Below, piece by piece: positions 3,924-64,000 of a stretch of 64,000 nt of DNA. Source of the stretch: Salinimicrobium sp. (lineage in GTDB: Archaea > Thermoplasmatota > Poseidoniia > Poseidoniales > Poseidoniaceae); the NCBI GenBank assembly GCA_964228865.1, contig CAXRAI010000016.1, positions 54,440 to 118,439 on the forward strand. The letters are read 5' to 3'. Positions within the stretch are counted from its first letter, which is position 1. Every line of letters starts with the position of its first letter. A model generated the notes under the pieces. That model saw nothing but the letters and a program-made list of their open reading frames with translations. It was not told where the DNA came from and did not search any database. Position numbers and translations under genes: made by a program.

Positions 3924-5209
3924 GCGACGATGGCCGCTTCGACCTCGTCGTCTTCCATCAGACGACGCTGTGATTTTGCAACCTCAAACAGGTGCGCAAC
4001 GAGGTCATCGCTCGCTTCGCGACCCCGTTGCTCGAGCCAGTGGACGATGTTCGAGCGCCCGGCCATGTGACCAATACGAATCCGCTGTTGGAGGCCAAAA
4101 TCCCCGGCGGGAACGCCGCTATAGACACGGTCAGCTAGCCAATGGTCACCTTTGCGCATGGCCTTGATGACCGCAGAGGCGTGAACACCTGTGCCGGTCT
4201 CAAACGCATCGTCACCAAACACGGGGTAGTTGCGGGGCAAGGGCACACCGGTGTAGGCATGGGCCTTCTTCACGTACTCCCCAAGAAGGGTCAGATCGTT
4301 GTCGATGGCGCCCATGAGCTTCAGGTTCACCAAGGTCTGGTCAAGAGGTGCGTTGCCTGAACGTTCACCCAGTCCGAGCGCGGTACCGTGAATCACGTCG
4401 GCACCGGCTTGGACGGCAGCGAGGTTGTTGGCCACGCCGAGACCGCGGTCCTGATGGCCGTGCCAGTTGACCTCAATGTCTGAACGCCGGTAGCCTGCAT
4501 CCTTGATGACGTGCTCGTCGATGAAACCGAGGAGGCTGCGAACGCCGTCTGGCGTGACGTGCCCGCAGGTGTCGCACACGCAAAGGCGACGTACGCCGAG
4601 TTCGAGGGCGCGCTGATAGACGCCGATGATGTCCTCAGGCTTGGAACGGGTCGTGTCTTCGGTGACAAACATCACGGGGATGTCTTGCTCGACAGCGAAA
4701 CCAACCGCGCCTTCCATCGTATTGAGCAACTTCTCCATGGTCCAGTTTTCGGCGTACATGCGAATGGGGCTTGTGCCCAAGAACGCAGATGCCTGAATCT
4801 CCATGCCGTGCTTGGCCTGCAGATCGACCAAGGGCTCGATGTCAGACACCACGGTGCGGACCGCACAACCCGGACGTATGGTGTAGTCGTTTTCGCTGAT
4901 GTGGGTCAGCATCGCGTCGATGTGTTCGAGGTGGAATGGCCCCGCCCCAGGCAAGCCGAGGTCGACTTTCTGAAGGCCCAGGCGCTCCATGTAATCCAGC
5001 AATTCCTTCTTCTGCTCGATGGATGGATTCAGCGCGGAGGGGCTTTGCAAGCCGTCACGCAAGGTCTCGTCGTCAAACCAAATCTCGTGAGGATGACGGC
5101 TGGCATCGCGTGAAAACTCACCGTCAGAAACGTTCCAATCGTGAATGAGACGTGTTTCATCCATGCCTTCACCTCCCGTCGACGACGCGCGACGCGGTGT
5201 TTCCGCCAA
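3905..5209 (-). CDS. 2-isopropylmalate/homocitrate/citramalate synthase family (DRE-TIM metallolyase) enzyme
   Basis: IWFDDETLRDGLQSP and HGHQDRGLGVANNLAAVQAGADVIHGTALGLGERSGNAPL are the LeuA/NifV/CimA family signatures. There is no long LeuA regulatory domain, so the exact activity is unresolved. Confidence 0.8.
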   Translation of the reverse strand: MAETPRRASSTGGEGMDETRLIHDWNVSDGEFSRDASRHPHEIWFDDETLRDGLQSPSALNPSIEQKKELLDYMERLGLQKVDLGLPGAGPFHLEHIDAMLTHISENDYTIRPGCAVRTVVSDIEPLVDLQAKHGMEIQASAFLGTSPIRMYAENWTMEKLLNTMEGAVGFAVEQDIPVMFVTEDTTRSKPEDIIGVYQRALELGVRRLCVCDTCGHVTPDGVRSLLGFIDEHVIKDAGYRRSDIEVNWHGHQDRGLGVANNLAAVQAGADVIHGTALGLGERSGNAPLDQTLVNLKLMGAIDNDLTLLGEYVKKAHAYTGVPLPRNYPVFGDDAFETGTGVHASAVIKAMRKGDHWLADRVYSGVPAGDFGLQQRIRIGHMAGRSNIVHWLEQRGREASDDLVAHLFEVAKSQRRLMEDDEVEAAIVAYESSS

Positions 5210-5251
5210 CCCGCGGGAGGGTTTGAAGGCGTCGGAGGAACCACAGCCGTC

Positions 5252-10123
<4,872 letters not shown>

Positions 10124-10918: not shown

Positions 10919-11890
10919 TCAGGCCTCGACAGGATCCAGTCCAGCGTTCGAATAGCGGTGCTGAATGACGGCCGGCACGGCCACCATCCCACCAAGCAAG
11001 ACGATCAGCACCAGGGCCACGCTTGCCGGGGGCATGACAAAGGAGCGGGGCGTGGCAACCGCCGCCACATCAGCGTAGACCGCTGATTCCGGAGGCATTG
11101 CGTCCTTCCCGTGGCCGTTGTCCCACGTGTCAATGACGAGGTAGAAGTCTTCCCACATCTCGCCGCTGAACAAGGAACGGCTGACTTCGGCTTTGTCCAG
11201 ACTTAGGCTGAAGGACACTTCTTCCACGGACTCATAGGCGTGGACGTCGCGGTAAGTGGTCCACCCCATGGGGTCATAACGCCTCAATTCTGGTGCTCGA
11301 TCGGCAAGAAGGTCATCGATGTCGTCCCACCATCCATACGAACTGTGGGCGTTGTTGTACGATTGCTCGTAACGCTGGTATTCCGAGGTGGTCAAGAGGT
11401 AGACGTCGGCTTCAACCGGCAGGCGGTTTCCGTCTTCGTCGAGGTTGCCATAGAGCGTGACACAGAAGGTCATGCGATGCTCGGCAGAGAGGTTGAACCG
11501 ATAGGCGCCAACGCTGTCGTTTCCAACCGCCATGGTGGCCTGCATGGAGGTCCGCATTGGAGAGAGCGGCTGAGGGTACCGCCAATTGACCATCCAGTCC
11601 TCTTCAGGGTGGAGGGAGCTGTTGCGCGCGGTCTCACCGGTGGTGGCGTACTGTTGAGCACGCTGGTCTTCGTCCATGTACCAATCGTCGTAGTAGTTGT
11701 AAACGTTCCAAGGCACCAATGCGGCCCGGTCAACGGTCTTGTTCCAATCCGCATCCAGAAGGTCTGACCCGCATGCTTCACTTGCCGGGGCCGCAGCCAC
11801 GGGGACCGCGAGGAAGGCTGCGAGGCAGGGCGCCAAGAACAGCCAAACCCCCAAGGTGGCCGTCAGCGGGCGCCTCGGCGCGTCATCCAT
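10919..11890 (-). CDS. Secreted, membrane-anchored hypothetical protein with a signal peptide and a C-terminal TM helix
   Basis: The N-terminus LGVWLFLAPCLAAFLAVPVAAAPA is a signal peptide, and the C-terminus ASVALVLIVLLGGMVAVPAVIQHRY is a TM anchor. The protein is rich in W, Y and D. It lies immediately downstream of the giant PKD protease on the same strand. Confidence 0.55.
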   Translation of the reverse strand: MDDAPRRPLTATLGVWLFLAPCLAAFLAVPVAAAPASEACGSDLLDADWNKTVDRAALVPWNVYNYYDDWYMDEDQRAQQYATTGETARNSSLHPEEDWMVNWRYPQPLSPMRTSMQATMAVGNDSVGAYRFNLSAEHRMTFCVTLYGNLDEDGNRLPVEADVYLLTTSEYQRYEQSYNNAHSSYGWWDDIDDLLADRAPELRRYDPMGWTTYRDVHAYESVEEVSFSLSLDKAEVSRSLFSGEMWEDFYLVIDTWDNGHGKDAMPPESAVYADVAAVATPRSFVMPPASVALVLIVLLGGMVAVPAVIQHRYSNAGLDPVEA

Positions 11891-11928
11891 GCAACCGCCT
11901 CGCGCTCCCGGCCATTGAACCTGACCGT

Positions 11929-14900
11929 TCAGCGACGCCGCAACGGCCGGACGTAGCCGCTCGCTTCGTCCCTTCGTTCTTCCTTCCGCAGGATTCGAGG
12001 AGCAGGAGGTGCTCGGTGATCGTCGATACCTAGCATGCCATCGACCTCGACCCGCTCGACGTCCGCGTAGGCTTCTGCGTCCTTCGTGGCCGCTTCTTCG
12101 TCCTCAGTTGGCGCCCGCATCACCAGATAACCAAGCACCAAGGCCGCGATCACAAGTCCCAGGAAAAGGGCGGCATCGGCTCCAATGGAGCGCATCCAAG
12201 CGCTCCAATCTTCACGCGAAAATTCGGAAAGTGAAGGCGGGAGCGTGCTTTGGGGAGAGACGTCGATTTCGAGGTCCATGACCGCGCACTGATTCAGAGC
12301 ATCGCACGCCTCGATTCGAACGGTTCGACGACCGGCTTCGTCGTACACGGTCGCCACGCGATAGGTGTCCTCACGAACGGGTGCAACCCAGTCGTTGTCG
12401 GTCACGCCGTCACCGTCTGTGTCGACCTCAAGGTCGAGTTCCCACAAGGCTGCGATGCGTTGTTCAAGCAACACATCGCAATCCTCCATGGAGCCGTCGT
12501 TCACGTCCTCATCACGGCAGAGCGTTCCGTCTTTGTCCAGTTGTGCAAAGGTCACTTGCGCATCGATGATGGCATTGATGCCAGCGACGAACTCGTCAGG
12601 GATATCGATGAGCGTCACTTCTGGAGGCGCATCAATGACCACCGTAAACTGGGCCCGGGTCACGTCACCGGTCAGGTGCGCATCGCGGACGGTGAGGGTG
12701 ATCGTGTAGTTGCCCGGCTCAGCGTACGCGTGCCAAGGCGACGGCGTGTAGGACAAAGCCGAGCCGTCACCGAAATCCCAGACGTACTCCACCAGCCCGT
12801 TCCAGTCTTCAGAAGCTGGCTCCATTGGGACAAGCCTACCCTCGAAACGAGCATCGCCGTCACGCGTCCCGTCCGAATCGAAGTAAAGCAAGGTTCCCGG
12901 TGAAGCATGGACGGACCCGGCGTCGTCGAAGGTCCTCTTGAGGGTCACAACACCCACATCACCGTCGAACGGTGTGGTGACCTCGACAAGGCTGCCGTTC
13001 AACCACGCCTCGACGATGCGAACCTCGATGAGCGGCACGGGATTGATGACGTCGAAAGTTACGGTCCTCGGAGCGCTTTGGGCGCCGTCGGCGTCCGTGA
13101 CGACCAAGGTCACGCTCTGGATGCCGGGCGTGGCGAAGGTAAACCGGGGCTGAACCTCGGTTGAATTGCTACCGTCAGGGAAGGTCCAGTTGAAACTCAA
13201 GTCGTTTTGATCTCCGACCAACCCGTCCGGATCGGTGCTGTCTCGAGCGTTGAAGACGTAGGGAATATCGGGTTGGATGTCTGACGTCAAGAGGTCCAGC
13301 GTTTCGCTCGATGAGGCCTCACGAACGTTGAACGTCGCCGTAGGGCGTTGGTTTTCGACGATGACCTCCAACGTGGCCAACGATGTGCCGCCGTCATCGT
13401 CCACGACGGTGACCTCGACGGTGTAGGTGCCTGCACGCTCCCACGCCACGACCGGCTGTGCGCTGGTGGCCAAGACGGTGTTGAAATCGCTGGTGCGGTC
13501 CACGGTACCAGATCCGAGGTGGACACCGCCTGGGAAAGACCAGCTCCACGATTCAATGGTCCCGTCTTGGTCCTCAAACACAAGCGGCATCACCGTAGGC
13601 GTCTGGGTCACGGTCATGATGGGGCCGGCCTCAATCTGAACAGGAAGGCGGTTGTTGACCACGACGTCGACCGCCTTGGTGCCCATGTTGGCCCCGTCGG
13701 AAACGCTCAACACGAGCGTGAAGGTCTCGTTTTGTCCATCGATGTCGGTCCAAGCATGATTGGCACTGAACATGCCTGGGCCTTCGTCAACGGTACCGTC
13801 GCCCCAATCCCACGAATAGTTGAGGAAATTGGTCGGAACATTGTCCGTGGTCCGGCCTGCTGAAAACAGGATGCGCTGGTCCACCATGACGCTGATGGTA
13901 TCTCCAACGACCTGGTTGTTGATGGTGATGATCGGAATGGGGTCCGTGTTGTCGATGACCTCGATGGGCAACACGTCAACCTCGGACCACAGGCCCCCGA
14001 AATCCTTGACTTGGAGGGTCACGTTGTACAGGCCGATGGTTTCGTAACCTCGAACGGGGGACTTGAGCCCGCTTGTTTGGTTGTCGCCAAAGTCCCAGGC
14101 GTAGGCAACTGGCGGGTCGAGGTAGGGCAGCGTGTTGTTGACCAAGGAGAGGCCCCATGCGTCAAAACCGTCGCCGCTGAAAGCCACGTCATTCCAACTC
14201 AGGGTGAGGTTCGTCGAAACCGATCCGTTGGACACGGGGCGCATGTTGGCCACGGTCAGGGGTGCGCTGGTGGTCTCGTCGACGTTGTTTCCAAGCAGGT
14301 CACGCATGGTGAATTCGAAGGTGTACTGCCCGTCGGCGTTTGGCGTGAAGAACACCGACGTGCTCACGGGCTGACCACCGCCGGCCTCAACACGAGCGTC
14401 GAGGCGGTCCACGACGGCTCCCGTCCCGTCACGCACGGCGACATCGACGTCAAGGTCTTCGAAGAAGGCGTTTGAGAGCACGTCAAACTCGAGTTCCACC
14501 GTGTCGTCAAGGCCATCGCCATCGCGGTCTGAAGTGGTCACGTTTCCAGTGTCGATCGTCGCCGGAGCGGTGATTCGTGCCGCCTCAAGGTCGATGGTCC
14601 CCGTTGGGTAACTTGGACCGCAACTGGTGTAGTCGCAATCACCGATGCTGCTGGCCAGCCAAACGATCACCCACACCTCATCGGTGAGGTTTCCAAAGCC
14701 GGGAACAAGGGCCGTGGCCTGGGAGTTACTGAAGGTCAAATCGCTCACGGTGAGCAAGCCGTCCGAAGCAGCCTGCGTGACCACGACGCCGTCGAAGTCT
14801 GCACGATCTCCGGTCACGCGAAGGGTCAACGGCGCTGGAGAAGCGGAACCTGGTGTGAGCTTGAACGACCGGATGCCCCATCCTTCCATCGTGTGGCCCG

Positions 14901-57930: not shown

Positions 57931-58731
57931 TTATGCGATGCGTTCCACGGTTTCGGGCGTGATGCACTCCTCGGGCGTCACGCGGAAGACCAGGATGCGG
58001 AGGTTTTCAGGAGCGTTGCGGAACTTGGTCACGGTCATCGAGGTCTCAAAGTCTGTACCGATCGTCCGGACCTTGAATTCCAACACCATGTCAGCGATGC
58101 CGGCCACCTCTTGCCGAAGGCCGGGGGGCAAACCGTCGGATGAGATCGTGACCAACAAGAGGCCGCGAACCATCTGCGTGTGGGCTTGCAGCATACGCAT
58201 CATGGAAATGACCCTGGACGGATCCTCACGTTGAACGAAGAAGTCCATGCTGTCCACCACGGCCCGGAAGTACGGATCGAGGGCCATGACCTCGTTGGTC
58301 ACCTCTGTCAGGAAGTCGCGGTTCTCTGTGTCCACGAATCGGGTTTGAGCCAGGCGCTGAATGTCGGGCAACTGGAAGCCTTCCAACCGGTAACGGCTCG
58401 CCAACAAATCACGTTCCAGCACGCTGGCGTTGTATTCCTCACCGACGGTACGCACCCCGATGTCGAGGGGCCAGTTGTACTTCTCGTAAACACGAATGAT
58501 CTCCTGTTGAGCCTCGTTGGTGGAAATGAGGATGGTGTTCTCTGGCTCTTCCGCGGGTGACGTGAACTGCTTCGCAAACAGCTCCGAGCCAGAACCGGTC
58601 TGAGTGAACGCGACGATCATGAAGCCTCGAGGCACACCGCCGCCCATCACGGCGTCAAACTTCGGGACACCAAAACCGCCGACCTTGCCAAAGAACTCCT
58701 CGTCTTCAGGACTGAAGGTGATGTCTGCCAT
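57931..58731 (-). CDS. KaiC/RecA-superfamily paralog with a degenerate P-loop (pseudo-ATPase)
   Basis: KFDAVMGGGVPRGFMIVAFTQTGSGSELFAKQF aligns with the KaiC GLDELLGGGIPRGSVVLVAGAPGTGKTTLALQF block, but the Walker A Lys and Thr are replaced (GSGSE). Confidence 0.6.
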   Translation of the reverse strand: MADITFSPEDEEFFGKVGGFGVPKFDAVMGGGVPRGFMIVAFTQTGSGSELFAKQFTSPAEEPENTILISTNEAQQEIIRVYEKYNWPLDIGVRTVGEEYNASVLERDLLASRYRLEGFQLPDIQRLAQTRFVDTENRDFLTEVTNEVMALDPYFRAVVDSMDFFVQREDPSRVISMMRMLQAHTQMVRGLLLVTISSDGLPPGLRQEVAGIADMVLEFKVRTIGTDFETSMTVTKFRNAPENLRILVFRVTPEECITPETVERIA

Positions 58732-58740
58732 GGGTTCACC

Positions 58741-59325
58741 TCACTGAATAACGACCTGCCCACGGTCAATCAGGGCTGTGCAGTACAAATCCAGGTTGGC
58801 CAGCACGAGGGGAGGCGTCTGGTCCGGGACGTTGATCAGCACAGAGAGCACCTCACGCTGCCTGAACGTGTTGATGAAGGTGTGAAGGTACTCTGCAAGC
58901 ATACGGTCGTCGTTGTAAATCGACAAGGCGTTGATGCTGTCAACGAAGACGAAGTTCCGCTCAAAGGTGGAGGTGCGGAGGATGTACAAGGTCCTCAGGA
59001 GGACCGACTCGAGCATGATTGGGCTGTCGACGAAATGCACGTTCGGGTAGGGAACGTCGGTGCCGCCCAGAATACCCGAGGACACCAAGTCAAGGAACTG
59101 AATGTTGCTGACGTCAACCCCGATGGATTCGAAGGCCTGAATGATTTCGACGGCCCCACGGCTGGCCGAGATATAGACGCCCCCCATGCCGAAGGACTGG
59201 ATGAGTGGGAGCATGGTGCTGGCCGTGACCACGAAGGAGTTTGAGTTGCCACAGCGCACCTGAACGGCGCTGTTGAGCGAGACTTCCGTCAGTTGCTCTG
59301 CGATGAGGGCGTCAAGTTCGAACAT
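58741..59325 (-). CDS. KaiC/RecA-superfamily paralog with a degenerate P-loop (pseudo-ATPase)
   Basis: LDALIAEQL...VQVRCGNSNSFVVTASTMLPLIQSF and FVFVDSINALSI match the KaiC fold but the GKT is lost. The start is either the ATG at 59325 (a 2-nt gap after the upstream stop) or the ORF-track start at 59370 (a 43-nt overlap). Confidence 0.55.
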   Translation of the reverse strand: MFELDALIAEQLTEVSLNSAVQVRCGNSNSFVVTASTMLPLIQSFGMGGVYISASRGAVEIIQAFESIGVDVSNIQFLDLVSSGILGGTDVPYPNVHFVDSPIMLESVLLRTLYILRTSTFERNFVFVDSINALSIYNDDRMLAEYLHTFINTFRQREVLSVLINVPDQTPPLVLANLDLYCTALIDRGQVVIQ

Positions 59326-59327
59326 GC

Positions 59328-60119
59328 TCAGGCCCCCCAACGCGTCTTTTGGTCCGAAACCGCGCCCCATTTGAGCATCGGAGTGAGCATCACGCCAAGT
59401 TGGGTCAACTCAATGGAGTGCTTGGCCCGACTGTGCGGCGTACCACGCATCTTCACGACTTGGAGGAAGCGAAGCAGGTGACCCATGCGCTCGACGTCGC
59501 CCATCACGATGATGCCGTCCGCGATGGCCTCTTCCACACCGAAGGACGACCAGTGGGCGTTTTCAGTGGCCGAGGTGATCTCTGAGATGAGCACGGTCGT
59601 GCACCCCAACGTGGCCAATTTCTTGCCAAGGGTAAACAGGAAATCGCGGATGAGCTGTTCGCTCTTGATCTTGTAGCACAAGGTGGTCACCGAATCGATG
59701 ACCAAACGGGTCACACCGATGGTGTTGACGATGTCCACGATGGCTTTGATGAGGGCGTGGACGTCGTCCAAGTCAAAGGTGGCCTTGTCCAAGCCAAGCC
59801 ATGAATACAGCACGTCGACGTCAAAGACGTTGATGAGGCCTGTATCGACCATGTTCATGTCGAAAAAGGAGTACTGGCGGATGTTTTCGAGGAGCTTTAC
59901 GCTCGGCTCTGTTGCCGTAAAGTGGGCGCATGCTTCGCCAGCAAGCGCTCCACGGACCAAGAATTCCATCGCCAACGTCGTCTTACCTGAACCACATGTT
60001 CCGGCCGCCAGCACGGTGGAGCCGTATGGAATCCCCCCACGGAGGATTTCATCCAACCCGTGGATGCCGGTGACGCACCGGTCGCGGGTGTAGACGCTGC
60101 TTGGCATCATGGGCTTCAT
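59328..60119 (-). CDS. KaiC-like RecA-superfamily ATPase (COG0467) with an intact Walker A
   Basis: TGIHGLDEILRGGIPYGSTVLAAGTCGSGKTTLAMEF is Walker A, RLVIDSVTTL is Walker B-like, and GHLLRFLQVVKMRG is a KaiC block. Confidence 0.75.
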   Translation of the reverse strand: MKPMMPSSVYTRDRCVTGIHGLDEILRGGIPYGSTVLAAGTCGSGKTTLAMEFLVRGALAGEACAHFTATEPSVKLLENIRQYSFFDMNMVDTGLINVFDVDVLYSWLGLDKATFDLDDVHALIKAIVDIVNTIGVTRLVIDSVTTLCYKIKSEQLIRDFLFTLGKKLATLGCTTVLISEITSATENAHWSSFGVEEAIADGIIVMGDVERMGHLLRFLQVVKMRGTPHSRAKHSIELTQLGVMLTPMLKWGAVSDQKTRWGA

Positions 60120-60168
60120 TCTGTGACGCGGGACCTCGGTTCAAGAAGCATCCGCCGTCGGTTTGACC

Positions 60169-61254
60169 TCAGGCAGCAATGAGCGGGGTCCAATCGCCGG
60201 GGCTGGGTGCGCCGGTCACCGTCCAATCGCTCATGTCACGAACGTCGGTTCCGTTCCACGTGAGCCCGTCGCCTGAGGCAAGAATGTGGCCGGTATCCCC
60301 GCCCCACGCCACGGTTTGCCGCGTGGCAGGAAGGCTGGTCGTCGGATCGGTGTAGTCCACCCGCAATCGGCCCTTGTCGTCGGGAATCACGTCGATTTGC
60401 CCCACGCCGAGCAAACCCACCACGCCAAGGTCGTAGACCTGGGTGGCGTTGCCGGAGTCTTGGGCGTTGACGTCACCGGTGAACACCGCAACACCGCCGC
60501 CGGTGATCAGGCCGTCCAACATCAGGTGGCTGGTGGTGTCTCGTCCGTCTTCGACGTGGAAGGACCACCCCAACAGGCGAACGGCGAAACCCTCAGGATT
60601 GTGCATCTCAAACCACTCTGGTCCACCGTTGTCGGGATGAGGTTGAACCTCCGTGACATGAAGCACCGAGGAGGCACGGCCTCCATCGTGGACCTCAAGC
60701 GAGACCCGGTACAACGCATCCTCACCCACGACCAAACGCGTGGCTCGGCTGGATGTCTCCGCGCCGATGCGCGTGGTTCCCCCTTGGAAAACGGTCGCTT
60801 CGGTGGTCCCGTTGGCGTCCAGCACATCGATGCGAAGGTGCACGTCGAAGGAAGCATCAAGGCCCAATCCCTCGGCAAAACCCTGTTCAGTCACCTTGCC
60901 CAAGGCGGCCAAACGGTCGGCATCGAGCTTCCCGTCCACCACAAGTCCTGCCCGCACACGCCCTTCAAACAGGGCTTCTGCGCTTTCCTCATGCCATGCC
61001 TGAGTCCCGTTGTCCACGTCAGCCTCACCGTCGACCAACGGCACAAACCAACCCTCATCGGCCACCAGCCGATCCAACCCGAGGACAGCCGAGCGGTCCA
61101 AGCGATCGAGGTAGGGGTCATTCGAACCCATCTGCATCTGGGCCAACGCGAGGAAAGCGGTGAGGATCATCAGGAACAGGGTGAAGGCCGAGAGGAACTC
61201 AATGACGGCCGTCAAACCGTCTCGGTCGCGCCGAAGTCCCGACACGTCCCGCAT
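60169..61254 (-). CDS. Membrane-anchored extracellular protein with a lamin-tail-domain (LTD)-like module
   Basis: The N-terminal TM/signal anchor is LTAVIEFLSAFTLFLMILTAFLALA. HVTEVQPHPDNGGPEWFEMHNPEGFAVRLLGWSFHVEDG...GGGVAVFTGDV resembles an LTD. Confidence 0.5.
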   Translation of the reverse strand: MRDVSGLRRDRDGLTAVIEFLSAFTLFLMILTAFLALAQMQMGSNDPYLDRLDRSAVLGLDRLVADEGWFVPLVDGEADVDNGTQAWHEESAEALFEGRVRAGLVVDGKLDADRLAALGKVTEQGFAEGLGLDASFDVHLRIDVLDANGTTEATVFQGGTTRIGAETSSRATRLVVGEDALYRVSLEVHDGGRASSVLHVTEVQPHPDNGGPEWFEMHNPEGFAVRLLGWSFHVEDGRDTTSHLMLDGLITGGGVAVFTGDVNAQDSGNATQVYDLGVVGLLGVGQIDVIPDDKGRLRVDYTDPTTSLPATRQTVAWGGDTGHILASGDGLTWNGTDVRDMSDWTVTGAPSPGDWTPLIAA

Positions 61255-61310
61255 GATGCAACCTGGCGCGCACGGGACATGAGCCTGTCGTCAGGATGGC
61301 TTCGCAAAGG

Positions 61311-61393
61311 CGCGGTGAGGGGGATTTGAACCCCCGAGGGTAGAACCCACAGGATTAGCAATCCTGCGCAATACCAGGCTATGCGATCACCGC
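61311..61393 (-). tRNA. tRNA-Ser (anticodon GCU) with a long variable arm; CCA is not encoded
   Basis: The minus-strand sequence is GCGGTGA-TC-GCAT-AGCCTGGTA-TTGC-G-CAGGA-TTGCTAA-TCCTG-TGGGTTCTACCCTC-GGGGG-TTCAAAT-CCCCC-TCACCGC, plus a discriminator G. The 7-bp acceptor stem, 5-bp anticodon and T stems are fully paired, the T-loop is TTCAAAT, and the 14-nt variable arm is typical of Ser. Confidence 0.85.
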
Positions 61394-61448: not shown

Positions 61449-64000
61449 TCAGAAGAAGTCGTCGAACTCTTCGGCCACGGAATTGGCCTGTTGTTGGCGG
61501 ATCCGTGCAGCGACAATGCGCTTCAGCCGGCGGTGGCGCCCCCTGAGCACAGGCAGGCCAATCGCCACCATCACAAACGCCACGAGCAGCACACCCAGTG
61601 CAGCTTGGAACAAACCGTCGCTCGCCATTCCATCCACGAGTTTGCCCACCCATGGACTGCCCAAGGGCGGTTCTGGTTCGGGCTCGGGCTCAGGGATGAG
61701 GTGCTGGTTGTACGCCCACCACTGGTCGTCGATCAAGAGACGAACGCTGTTCTCACCGATGACCACAGGGTTGTCGTTGCCCACGGCATCCGTTGGTGTC
61801 AGCACGAAGTAGAACACGCGGTACGGCCGGATGGATTCGTCAACGGAGCCGTTCATGTCGTAACGGCCTTCTTCGCCAGGGAAGGCTTGCATGTTGGCCA
61901 TCAGCGGCGTCAGGGCACTCAGGTCGAGCCCCACAGGGTCGATTTCAACGCGGTACAGGTTCCACGACACGTTGCCTTCCGGTTCATGATCGGGCCACGT
62001 CCACGTGACCGCAACGTCGTAGCAACGGTCCCAGTTGCCCGTTCGCTGATGGCAGGCACTGTCGTTGGAGAAGGTGCTCGTTGCGCGCAGGTCGCTCACC
62101 ACCACGTTCGGAGGAATCGCGTCACCGCAGAACAAACCCGGTCCACCTTGCTCACCGCTGGTGACGTTGAGGCGTGACAAATCAGGCGCCCCTGAGCGAT
62201 CGGCTGGCGCGACCAGGTACGAAGCACAGGTGTCGGTCTCGAGGGGAACTGTGTCGTACCAACGGTCGTTTTCAATCGCGGTGCTGGCCACGAAGGTTGA
62301 TTCGGTGAAGTCCTCCCAAAAGGACGGATTGGAGGACGCTTCAGGTGATGGGAAATAGGTCGAGGAACCGGCGGGCATGGCCAAGCGGTAGATGTTCCAG
62401 CCCGAAAGGTAGGGGTTGTCAAGGTCACCGCTGGCGTCCCAGAGCACCTCAAGATGGCCGTTTGGACGTCGCTCGAGGCGAACGTCCTCAAGGCGCACGT
62501 CCGGCGCGGGCAACTCGCCAATGAACATGAGCACCGTGTTCTCTCGAAGCACCACGTCAATCGTACCGTCGTCGTTCACGGTGGCTTCGTTTGGAGGGGC
62601 CACGAATCCCCATGAGGTCGAATTCATGGCAGGAAGCACACGAAGTTCCACCGTTTCAGGATCGATGTTGTTCGGAAGAAGTTCACTCAGGTTGAATTGG
62701 ATGCTCATCTCGAGAAGACCCGCGTCCCCTTCAATGCCACCGGGAGCCTCCAAGCCAAAGGCATGCAGCATCAGCGGCGCCTTGCCGTTTCCAACCCCGT
62801 AATTGAGGCCCAACAGTGGGAGGCTTTCCTCATGCACGAGGACGGCCTCCTCGAGGCTCACACCTTGACCCGTGTACGCCGCACCACCGTCGATGGCGGT
62901 GTGGTGCAACACCGTGATGTCAAGGAACTCAGATTGGGTGTACCCCAACACGTCACGAACAATCAGGGAAATTCGGTGGTCGCCGAGGTCCAAGGAATCG
63001 ACCGGGACCTCGATCAGCTGTCCATAACTCGCGCCTGGGACAAGGTCGAAGATGCCGTTGATTTTCCAGGTGTAGTTGAGGGGACCTGCCGCTGTGTCCG
63101 ACGTCCGGGCGATGAGCGTCATCGTCTCATCCGTGGTGTACACACCGTTGGAATTCGACTGGCTGATTGAGGCACCGATGGGCCCAACCGTGATGTCAAC
63201 GCCGCTTTGCGTGACTTCGTTGTCCTCAGGATTCACGTCGTTCCACAGGCCAAGGTCAACGGGGATGGTGACCGAAATCCGACGGTCTTCCCCGATGAAA
63301 TCGAGGTCAAAGAGGCATTCGTGGTCGGCTCCGGGAGCCATGGTTGGAAGATCGCAGCTTTGTTGTGTGTCGAGGTTTCCAAGCACATCGGAGATGGTCA
63401 TCGTCATCGAGGAGCCCGAGATGGTGGTGTTCCCATGGTTCTCGACCAGCGCAAGCACGGCATCGTCACCGTAGTAGAAGGGAGCGTTCGGGTCCTGCGT
63501 GTTGTGGGTGGGCATGAAACCCATCACCACCAAATCGGAGGTGTCGTCGAGCCGGAGATGGATGCTTCCAATGTTGTTCGTGGGCACCAGATCGCCGCTC
63601 GAATTGAAGACGCCGAACTCAAGCAGGTACCGCCCCGGTTCGTTGTAGGAAAAGGCAGGCAAGTCGCGGCTGAGTTGTGTCAAACCGCCCCAATTGTACC
63701 CGGTCAGGTCCACGTCGGTGATGGACTCCGCGACCGGAGCACCTCCGAAGTCGTGCGTCAGGCGCCACCCCCAACTCATGTTGAGATCGCACCCGCCACA
63801 CAAGTACACGTCGTAATCGACGCGCCAGGTTTCGCCTTGGCGAGGGTAGGTCACGTTGGTGTTCAAGACCGCTCCGTCAACTCCGCTGGCAACATCGAGA
63901 AGACCGTCTCGAGGGTCTTGGTTTTCTGGGACCATGATGTCCTTGAACTCCTCGGTGAGCACCACGTTGACCACCAAGGTGTCATCGCTGGTGTCAAAAT
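61449..64000 (-). CDS. Large cell-surface protein, 5' end outside the window, with CARDB/FN3-like beta-sandwich repeats, a PEPEPEPEP linker and a C-terminal TM anchor
   Basis: The frame stays open to the window edge. FN3-like blocks include LEVLWDASGDLDNPYLSGWNIYRL and VAVTWTWPDHEPEGNVSWNLYRVE. The C-terminus is LIPEPEPEPEPPLGSPW...LGVLLVAFVMVAIGLPVLRGRHRRLKR. Confidence 0.6.
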   Translation of the reverse strand, partial: FDTSDDTLVVNVVLTEEFKDIMVPENQDPRDGLLDVASGVDGAVLNTNVTYPRQGETWRVDYDVYLCGGCDLNMSWGWRLTHDFGGAPVAESITDVDLTGYNWGGLTQLSRDLPAFSYNEPGRYLLEFGVFNSSGDLVPTNNIGSIHLRLDDTSDLVVMGFMPTHNTQDPNAPFYYGDDAVLALVENHGNTTISGSSMTMTISDVLGNLDTQQSCDLPTMAPGADHECLFDLDFIGEDRRISVTIPVDLGLWNDVNPEDNEVTQSGVDITVGPIGASISQSNSNGVYTTDETMTLIARTSDTAAGPLNYTWKINGIFDLVPGASYGQLIEVPVDSLDLGDHRISLIVRDVLGYTQSEFLDITVLHHTAIDGGAAYTGQGVSLEEAVLVHEESLPLLGLNYGVGNGKAPLMLHAFGLEAPGGIEGDAGLLEMSIQFNLSELLPNNIDPETVELRVLPAMNSTSWGFVAPPNEATVNDDGTIDVVLRENTVLMFIGELPAPDVRLEDVRLERRPNGHLEVLWDASGDLDNPYLSGWNIYRLAMPAGSSTYFPSPEASSNPSFWEDFTESTFVASTAIENDRWYDTVPLETDTCASYLVAPADRSGAPDLSRLNVTSGEQGGPGLFCGDAIPPNVVVSDLRATSTFSNDSACHQRTGNWDRCYDVAVTWTWPDHEPEGNVSWNLYRVEIDPVGLDLSALTPLMANMQAFPGEEGRYDMNGSVDESIRPYRVFYFVLTPTDAVGNDNPVVIGENSVRLLIDDQWWAYNQHLIPEPEPEPEPPLGSPWVGKLVDGMASDGLFQAALGVLLVAFVMVAIGLPVLRGRHRRLKRIVAARIRQQQANSVAEEFDDFF

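Follow-up and report, generated by a model that had tools for sequence, protein, structure and literature searches.

At positions 57931-60119 of the 64,000-nucleotide stretch of contig CAXRAI010000016.1 analysed here (the window), three consecutive minus-strand genes, which we name K1, K2 and K3, encode a KaiC-like ATPase with a complete set of catalytic motifs followed by two paralogues of predicted RecA fold in which the Walker A nucleotide-binding motif is degenerate. The original prediction, drawn from the letters of the window, had placed three tightly packed minus-strand genes here, and the open reading frames (ORFs) of the window are present as it described, with 2 nucleotides between the K1 stop and the K2 ATG and 9 nucleotides between the K2 stop and the K3 ATG. 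The three genes are as follows.

59328-60119, minus strand: K1, 263 amino acids, single-domain KaiC-like ATPase with the full catalytic motif set.
58741-59325, minus strand: K2, 194 amino acids, truncated protein of predicted RecA/KaiC fold with neither a phosphate-binding loop (P-loop) nor an arginine-finger region.
57931-58731, minus strand: K3, 266 amino acids, full-length KaiC-family paralogue with a degenerate Walker A.

The K1 start conserved in orthologues is the ATG at 60110 (an internal 'MMP' start), which would give a protein of 260 amino acids and is probably the true start. An alternative K2 start, giving 209 amino acids, overlaps K1 and is not conserved in orthologues. ORFs on the opposite strand at the triad are typical long spurious frames, and the GC content of the genome is 57-63%.

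K1 matches the Pfam family KaiC (PF06745) with an E-value of 1.3e-51 and 175.6 bits, against a gathering threshold of 26.6 bits. Searched with phmmer against solved structures, it aligns end to end with the KaiC CI domain (2e-40) and matches the Pyrococcus single-domain homologues PH0284 (3e-31) and PH0186, both at about 1e-31. Walker A (GTCGSGKTT), the catalytic-glutamate region (TATE), Walker B (LVIDS) and the arginine finger (KMRG) are all present, and GxxGxGKT[ST], TE, hhhhDS and KMRG are invariant in every lineage compared; between families of Marine Group II (MGII), K1 proteins are 79-81% identical. Judged by its motifs, K1 is a canonical single-domain KaiC-like ATPase that should be catalytically competent.

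K3 likewise falls within the KaiC family, with a Pfam match of 1.7e-13 and 50.9 bits, above threshold, and a further match to DUF7125 (2.5e-05). A family profile built from 28 K3 sequences finds SSO2452 as its best match among solved structures (1.2e-12), followed by KaiC (7e-12), and K3 aligns to K1 with an hhalign probability of 87% and a BLASTP identity of 25% over 120 amino acids. The Walker A of K3 reads TQTGSGSE, in which the lysine has become serine and the threonine glutamate. The hallmark found in all K3 proteins is an acidic residue where Walker A normally has its Mg-coordinating Ser/Thr, within the motif Gx[ED]L[FL]xKQ[FY]; K3 proteins of Marine Group III (MGIII) keep the Walker A lysine (GSGKE), whereas those of MGII and other lineages have lost it (GSG[SMTLV][ED]). 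K3 retains the Walker B aspartate, the glutamate of ST.E and, by alignment, KFRN at the position of the KaiC arginine finger, and all K3 lineages keep the aspartate, the glutamate and K[FIV]RN.

The assignment of K2 follows a different route. Its Pfam KaiC match (4.8e-06, 26.6 bits) stands exactly at the threshold, while relatives of K2 reach 33.5 bits, and a profile of 57 K2-family sequences matches KaiC structure 8zn5 at 1.1e-05. An AlphaFold2 model built on the same 57-sequence alignment has a mean predicted local distance difference test score (pLDDT) of 92.1 and a predicted template-modelling score (pTM) of 0.89; compared with the PDB using Foldseek, its best matches are PH0284, FlaH (4yds), KaiC and RecA, with E-values from 1e-7 to 1e-5 and template-modelling scores of 0.6-0.70. 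BLASTP gives no match of K2 to K1 or to K3, and hhalign comparisons with the two paralogues, using small alignments, are weak (E 0.03-0.05). Because direct pairwise homology is not detected, K2 is placed in this fold on three other grounds, its Pfam match, the profile search of the PDB and the structure model, which together indicate a RecA/KaiC fold despite the truncation. At the position of the P-loop K2 reads CGNSNSF, with no Walker A. Across lineages, K2 never has a P-loop, always lacks the arginine-finger hairpin and always carries ESP[TI]MLE and DS[VI]N[AG]LxIY[NS].

Motif and fold evidence thus agree on one active ATPase followed by two degenerate RecA-fold paralogues, the arrangement first proposed from the sequence. 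The Walker A states reported then stand (K1 intact, K2 and K3 degenerate), as does the RecA fold of all three proteins, by profile searches for K1 and K3 and, for K2, by Pfam at threshold together with AlphaFold2 and Foldseek. The proposal that all three share the same conserved blocks holds in part: KMRG is found in K1 and its counterpart KFRN in K3, but K2 has only 'ELDALIAEQL' in place of a real GLDxxLGGGxPxG lead-in and its C-terminus stops before the KMRG hairpin. The label 'paralogs' rests on profile and structure evidence, pairwise similarity being very low.

The K2 family is broad, with 503 representatives at E <= 1e-3, and K2 together with this wider family shows weak matches to DUF7504, DUF7090, DUF835 and KaiC. 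K2-like domains occur at the C-terminus of giant TPR/SNAP/CARDB proteins of 900-1800 amino acids. They also occur as the cytoplasmic C-terminal domain of receptor-like proteins arranged as transmembrane helix, ectodomain, transmembrane helix, optional DUF835 domain and K2-like domain. The proteins with K2-like C-terminal or cytoplasmic domains are P0183, P0191, P0198, P0213, P0229, P0239 and P0265.

We then consider how widely the three genes are kept together. A one-genome-per-species scan of a single genome collection recovered 344 genomes with a K3 relative. The best 80 of these 344 (all Poseidoniaceae-level) were tabulated together with the MGII loci obtained by exact protein look-up, about 90 loci in all. 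Homologues bear the names Candidatus Poseidoniaceae, Thalassarchaeaceae or Poseidoniales (Marine Group II), and the organism of the window is itself a Poseidoniales (MGII) archaeon. Wherever an MGII locus offers enough sequence, K1, K2 and K3 are contiguous and co-directional, and identical copies are found on TARA and other marine contigs. A metagenome scan with a K3 alignment led by a distant member added 80 loci of 35-68% GC, which with L095 and L096 make a distant set of 82. In L095 and L096, distant K2-like genes are bracketed by a K1-like gene (48-52% identical) on one side and a K3-like gene (35%) on the other. K1-K2-K3 stand in order on one strand in 67 of the 82 distant loci; nine show K2-K3 up to the contig end and six show K3 only, two of these being genuinely stand-alone. 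The source names of the distant loci are Marine Group III (CG-Bathy1, CG-Bathy2, CG-Epi1), Candidatus Poseidoniia, Candidatus Thermoplasmatota and groundwater 'Euryarchaeota CG_4_9...'. Spacing between triad genes is mostly -8 to +14 nucleotides, as measured over about 150 loci.

The expectation that the triad would be conserved as a unit in relatives is thus borne out by the MGII loci and by the large majority of the distant ones. The triad is an ancient operon, older than the split of MGII and MGIII and also present in other Thermoplasmatota. Its occurrence in 344 species-level genomes of one collection and in distant Thermoplasmatota, with K1 about 80% identical across MGII families, marks it as a core function. 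Such deep co-conservation and tight packing fit, without proving, a hetero-oligomer, which on these grounds is plausible. Public annotations of the homologues read 'recombinase RecA', 'RAD55 family ATPase' and 'KaiC/GvpD/RAD55', and in JGI 'archaellum biogenesis ATPase FlaH' for some K2 and K3 proteins.

Several lineages vary the arrangement. K3 can stand alone: L153:3001-3852 and L158:7893-8744 each hold a K3-like gene of 283 amino acids with an acidic N-terminal extension and no K1 or K2 adjoining. In a low-GC groundwater lineage a gene of 368-370 amino acids lies between K2 and K3 (L095:1444-2556, L143:2718-3824, also L149 and L152); it matches MetOD1 / ATC_hydrolase-type (V4R-like) domains, in one stretch by Pfam and, by eye, possibly in two repeats. 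In MGIII a family of acidic cytoplasmic proteins of 141 amino acids (F2), which has no Pfam match, is encoded directly upstream of K1, 0-6 nucleotides away or overlapping, so forming a four-gene operon (examples L104:967-1395 and L110:6190-6615, with 27 other MGIII loci). ORFs of 581 and 467 amino acids upstream of K1 in high-GC loci were considered as additional KaiC-like genes and set aside; they have no Pfam match and are probably ORF-calling artefacts.

The genomic associations of the triad include a recurrent one with type IV pilins, which carries more weight as evidence than the surface-protein neighbours described below. The PilA N-terminal pattern AVSPVIATxLxxAITV was searched in all loci, about 8 kb to either side of K3 and about 1.9 Mb of flanking sequence in total. 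All matches, from 27 loci, fall 60-1600 nucleotides downstream of K3 and share its strand; each locus has one to three tandem PilA-type pilin genes. These loci comprise the MGII lineages L010, L091 and L093 together with every high-GC Thermoplasmatota locus among the L140-L176 matches, and Pfam Pilin_N supports the pilins (8.5e-10, 3.1e-07 and 1e-05). An archaeal prepilin peptidase gene lies convergent to K3 in the Thalassarchaeaceae locus L007 and in the similarly organised L008 and L092; its Arc_PepC_II matches (5e-6 to 8.5e-6) are just below cutoff, and it carries a GGADAK motif. In the high-GC Thermoplasmatota locus L144, a TnpB/Cas12f-like gene (11688-12962; Cas12f1-like TNB domain, 4e-21) is found a few kilobases downstream of the triad and pilin cluster.

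KaiC-family ATPases have been associated with archaeal type IV pilus and archaellum loci as an accessory or regulatory class (PMC4858521), and a KaiC-family gene in the type IV pilus locus of Pyrobaculum calidifontis was noted as unusual (PMC10334743). The KaiC-like protein ArlH forms hexamers on the motor ATPase ArlI, and the KaiC-like CirA takes part in pilin-dependent regulation of motility (both PMC10983859).

In MGII the triad is also flanked by genes of surface or membrane proteins. Two such genes, P361 and BIG, adjoin each other and flank the triad in all MGII, and with the intervening elements they complete the locus in the window as follows.

60138-60156, minus strand: promoter-like element GGCGGATGCTTCTTGAACC, 25-33 nucleotides upstream of the K1 start codons, of putative function.
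60169-61254, minus strand: P361, membrane protein of 361 amino acids, upstream of the triad in every MGII locus.
61309-61393, minus strand: tRNA-Ser(GCT), between BIG and P361, the only RNA found in an Rfam scan of the window.
61449-64000, minus strand: BIG, large surface protein of 991 amino acids in full, continuing past the window end.

P361 begins with a short variable N-terminal tail. Next comes a helix that hardly varies (TAVIEFLSAFTLFLMILTAF); an alpha/beta domain and a beta-sandwich follow, and a lamin-tail domain forms the C-terminus. The AlphaFold model of P361 (pLDDT 87) gives the helix a length of 37 residues ahead of the same succession of domains. The helix consensus, [GA]-[LMV]TAV[IV]EFLSAFTLFLMILTAF, is near-invariant, while the rest of the protein is 37-50% conserved. 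The N-terminus is atypical pilin-like, and P361 may be a pilin-like or signal-anchored adhesin.

BIG consists of a signal peptide, an ectodomain of about 900 amino acids, a PEPEPEP stalk, a C-terminal transmembrane helix and a cytoplasmic tail, and matches no Pfam family. The tail (61449-61560 in the window; the full protein occupies 4308-7283 of the extended locus L001) runs from a basic stretch to an acidic one and ends in [DE][DE]FF, an ending kept across MGII although the BIG ectodomain is 27-45% identical. The tail looks like a docking peptide for a cytoplasmic partner. Identity to the window proteins falls across MGII from K1 (79-100%) through K2 (64-100%), K3 (54-100%) and P361 (37-100%) to BIG (27-100%), the pattern expected if constrained cytoplasmic proteins are encoded beside fast-evolving surface proteins. 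Because tRNA-Ser(GCT) separates BIG from P361, BIG is treated as a separate unit. Wherever MGII loci were checked, the tRNA gene directly adjoins BIG at its 3' end, and the block of tRNA-Ser and BIG is inverted in the window lineage and L019 relative to most Poseidoniaceae and Thalassarchaeaceae loci. Beside the cluster in L148 and in the high-GC loci are genes of large surface proteins that have a transmembrane helix and a cytoplasmic zinc-ribbon tail.

The intergenic motif at 60138-60156, GGATGCTTC(A/T)T(G/C)AAC with core YTTC(A/T)T(G/C)AAC, has the same spacing to the K1 ATG among diverged Poseidoniaceae and is conserved where P361 proteins are only about 45-50% identical. It may be a TATA/BRE-like (B recognition element) promoter of a near-leaderless K1-K3 transcript. 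Its palindromic core TTCATGAA could instead be a regulator site.

Farther out, the gene order in Poseidoniaceae is ctaA, ctaB, BIG, P361, K1-K3, menG, atpHIKECFABD. The original prediction had placed menG and the atpHIKECFABD genes after the triad on the same strand, and annotation of the downstream genes bears this out: menG follows K3 by about 56 nucleotides on the same strand and precedes atpHIKECFABD, both in the window and in almost every Poseidoniaceae locus retrieved. Just upstream of BIG, past the right end of the window on the same contig (L001:1-4233), lie genes for tryptophan 2,3-dioxygenase, an rpoK-like protein, and ctaA and ctaB (haem A and haem O synthases). The cta, menG and atp genes form a Poseidoniaceae-specific bioenergetic neighbourhood around the triad; the menG/atp adjacency is confined to that family and is seen in neither Thalassarchaeaceae-type MGII nor MGIII nor other Thermoplasmatota. 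In diverged MGII (L007, L008, L010 and L091-L093) a pilin or prepilin peptidase, EPSP synthase and mutL/mutS lie downstream, with gyrB/gyrA upstream of the triad in L007, L010, L091 and L092. L094 keeps cta and is missing menG, L009 and L076 are rearranged, and the triad persists in all three. Upstream of the triad, MGIII loci carry a gene for an OPT or sodium-solute transporter together with the 141-amino-acid gene. Because the flanks differ in every other group, the menG/atp adjacency is a lineage-specific synteny, and the suggestion that it hints at a link to energy or redox regulation did not hold up, given that the triad persists without menG/atp outside Poseidoniaceae.

Building on the observed folds, motif states, operon conservation and gene associations, we infer a hetero-oligomer, roles for its subunits and a link to pili. 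By analogy with ArlH, the triad would form a heteromeric cytoplasmic module serving pilin-based surface structures, a reading to which we give about an even chance of being correct. K1, K2 and K3 would act together as a cytoplasmic KaiC/RecA-fold assembly in which normal ATP binding and hydrolysis would be confined to K1. In RecA-type rings each active site is formed where two subunits meet, and the arginine finger comes from the adjoining subunit. It is on this interface logic and the fixed pattern of motifs that we propose that K3 may complete or gate the interfacial active site of K1 through a trans arginine finger (K[FIV]RN), with no ATP turnover of its own, and that K2, truncated and P-loop-less, may be a non-catalytic adaptor subunit. 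Much as ArlH docks on ArlI, the module would serve, or exert control over, a type IV pilus of the PilA kind or an apparatus for adhesion, and may read or act on the membrane proteins encoded alongside; in this Poseidoniaceae genome, the pilin genes would no longer adjoin the triad. A more specific version seems to us rather unlikely in its entirety. It would have the triad form an obligate hetero-hexamer (K1-K2-K3)2, with the K1 P-loop and the K3 arginine finger as its sole catalytic interface, a prokaryotic counterpart of Elp456 and Rad51-paralogue complexes acting as the ArlH-equivalent ring of PilA-type pili in Poseidoniia and Thermoplasmatota and coupling the tails of surface proteins (the [DE][DE]FF of BIG) to pilus assembly or adhesion.

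Several observations weigh against an ArlH-like module dedicated to pilin-based structures. The window holds no pilin or prepilin peptidase, as judged by tblastn with the Thalassarchaeaceae prepilin peptidase and pilin and by the PilA motif scan, and no gene for a PilB/ArlI-type ATPase or TadC adjoins the triad there. The same four kinds of gene are not adjacent in Poseidoniaceae or Marine Group III generally, and no secretion ATPase or TadC-like platform gene lies next to the triad in any locus examined. The MetOD1/V4R-like insertion of the groundwater lineage fits general signalling as well as a pilus role. A rival reading makes the triad a KaiC-type signalling hub of a general kind, a switch driven by ATP in which two pseudo-enzymes partner the active subunit and whose output would not be specifically pili; surface or adhesion state, transport and metabolism would be examples of outputs reached through protein-protein interactions, and pilins one client of several. 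In favour of the hub, the triad is retained with no pilin gene next to it in Marine Group III and Poseidoniaceae, a ligand-binding gene of the MetOD1/V4R-like type sits between K2 and K3 in groundwater lineages, and K2-like domains serve as cytoplasmic modules of many receptor-like proteins; KaiC-like ATPases have also been put forward as signal-transduction hubs of archaea (PMC5847659, citing Makarova 2017). The position of the PilA matches tells against such a hub: without a specific link, it is hard to see why all of them should fall immediately downstream of K3, on its own strand, in two clades with K3 proteins only about 35% identical. In addition, K1 lacks Ser/Thr phosphosites at the positions equivalent to those of KaiC CII. 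We regard the hub as possible, if on the unlikely side, and prefer the pilin-serving, ArlH-like module.

The remaining alternatives have considerably less to commend them. That the triad is a mediator of recombination or DNA repair composed of RadA/RecA paralogues, comparable to Rad55-Rad57, the Rad51 paralogues or the Sulfolobus RadA paralogues, is suggested by the public labels 'recombinase RecA' and 'RAD55 family ATPase', by the best solved-structure match of the K3 family (SSO2452, which we take to be a RadA paralogue), and by gyrA/gyrB upstream in L007, L010, L091 and L092 and mutS/mutL a few kilobases downstream in L010, L091 and L093. The labels, however, are generic COG0467 names; the gyrase and mutS/mutL genes are neither co-oriented nor operonic with the triad and are missing in other lineages; no DNA-binding N-terminal domain was found in the triad proteins; and the NCBIfam scores, 24.1 bits for RadB (cutoff 278) and 18 for RadA (cutoff 259), are far too low. 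We consider this role very unlikely. Still less probable is a role in regulating energy or redox metabolism, with the triad transcribed together with menG and the A-type ATP synthase genes. In nearly all Poseidoniaceae menG and the atp genes do follow K3 closely on the same strand, no obvious terminator is visible after K3, and ctaA/ctaB lie upstream, but the adjacency is lost in L007, L010, L091-L093, L094, L009, L076 and all MGIII and other Thermoplasmatota while the triad stays. The prospect that these are misannotated or displaced archaellum accessory genes (ArlH, with or without ArlCDE) is scarcely credible. In its favour, some orthologues of K2 and K3 carry the JGI label 'archaellum biogenesis ATPase FlaH', the K2 model has FlaH (4yds) as one of its best structural matches, and K3 finds its best NCBIfam match in ArlH (2.6e-12). 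Yet scores against ArlH NF052589 are 37-47 bits (36.7 for K1, 47.0 for K3, none for K2) against a cutoff of 215, no arlB/F/G/I/J genes occur in any locus examined, and the Walker A, intact in the solved ArlH homologues matched here, is lost in K2 and K3. Membership of the archaellum ArlH/ArlCDE set, named in the original prediction as an example of a known family whose recognition here would refute it, is effectively refuted by these scores and the context. An anti-phage defence system was also considered and rejected: PADLOC returns only a weak partial match of K1 to mad8 (1.5e-06, residues 68-185) and none for K2, K3, P361 or BIG.

Poseidoniia (MGII and MGIII) are among the most abundant planktonic archaea and are uncultured, their surface-attachment biology having been inferred nearly entirely from genomes. 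Recognition of the triad as a unit, one active member and two pseudo-enzymes with a recurrent linkage to pilins, corrects the labels 'RecA', 'RAD55' and 'FlaH', and K2 and K3 should not be counted as archaellum FlaH in surveys of motility. The triad is, in addition, a testable candidate for the cytoplasmic regulation of archaeal adhesion pili, a question largely open outside archaellum ArlH.

Set against known families, the triad proteins belong to the KaiC domain superfamily only; circadian KaiC, ArlH and RadB fail on score and context. With the KaiC CI domain and PH0284, K1 shares an end-to-end alignment in which Walker A, Walker B, the catalytic glutamate and the arginine finger are all present. 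Circadian KaiC, defined by two tandem domains (about 500 amino acids) and an equivalog cutoff, differs in its CI-CII tandem from the single domain of K1, which reads EEAIADGII at the positions equivalent to the KaiC-CII phosphosites, with no Ser/Thr, and which is co-encoded obligately with two pseudo-ATPase partners. K1 scores 100 bits against a cutoff of 546 for the circadian KaiC NCBIfam model TIGR02655, and 131.6 against 408 for NF006799; no KaiB/thioredoxin-like or KaiA partner gene occurs among the called neighbours in any locus. In eukaryotic Elp4/5/6 and in the Rad51-paralogue and Rad55-Rad57 complexes, diverged RecA-fold paralogues, some of them P-loop-degenerate, form one hetero-oligomer. 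Their likeness to the triad is an analogy of architecture only; the triad has no tRNA-modification or recombination context, and the faint Pfam matches to PAXNEB (Elp4, E 0.05) and Iki1 (Elp5, E 0.0075) are not significant.

Inactivated KaiC-like domains are an acknowledged class in archaea (PMC5847659), known as iKaiC and set beside DUF835, DUF7504, DUF7090 and DUF7125; K2 and its wider family match DUF7504, DUF7090 and DUF835 weakly, and K3 matches DUF7125. The scores lie below the gathering thresholds of those families, and K2 and K3 form well-defined orthologous groups of their own, each with its hallmark motifs and a fixed position in the three-gene operon. The original prediction knew of no named archaeal system with this architecture; the triad itself is indeed unnamed, although KaiC-like hubs and KaiC proteins associated with type IV pili are known (PMC4858521, PMC5847659). 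In the literature searched we found no description of a three-paralogue operon (active, truncated and Walker-A-acidic) with linkage to pilins, and a prior description is possible.

The likenesses that bear on our preferred reading are to CirA and ArlH/FlaH. CirA of Haloferax volcanii is a KaiC-like ATPase tied to type IV pilin-dependent regulation of a surface structure (PMC10983859); it differs in being a single protein within the arl cluster, with neither a triad nor degenerate partners. ArlH/FlaH shares with the triad proteins a single-domain KaiC/RecA fold of about 230 amino acids, and is a cytoplasmic accessory of a type IV filament machine. It is, however, a single protein that assembles into homo-hexamers (PMC10983859), and its gene lies within arl operons beside arlI and arlJ, whereas archaellin, ArlI (T2SSE) and ArlJ (T2SSF) domains were not found among the neighbours of the triad in the loci examined. 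The triad, in contrast, comprises three diverged paralogues, two of them degenerate, and is accompanied never by ATPase or platform genes but by those of pilins and surface proteins.

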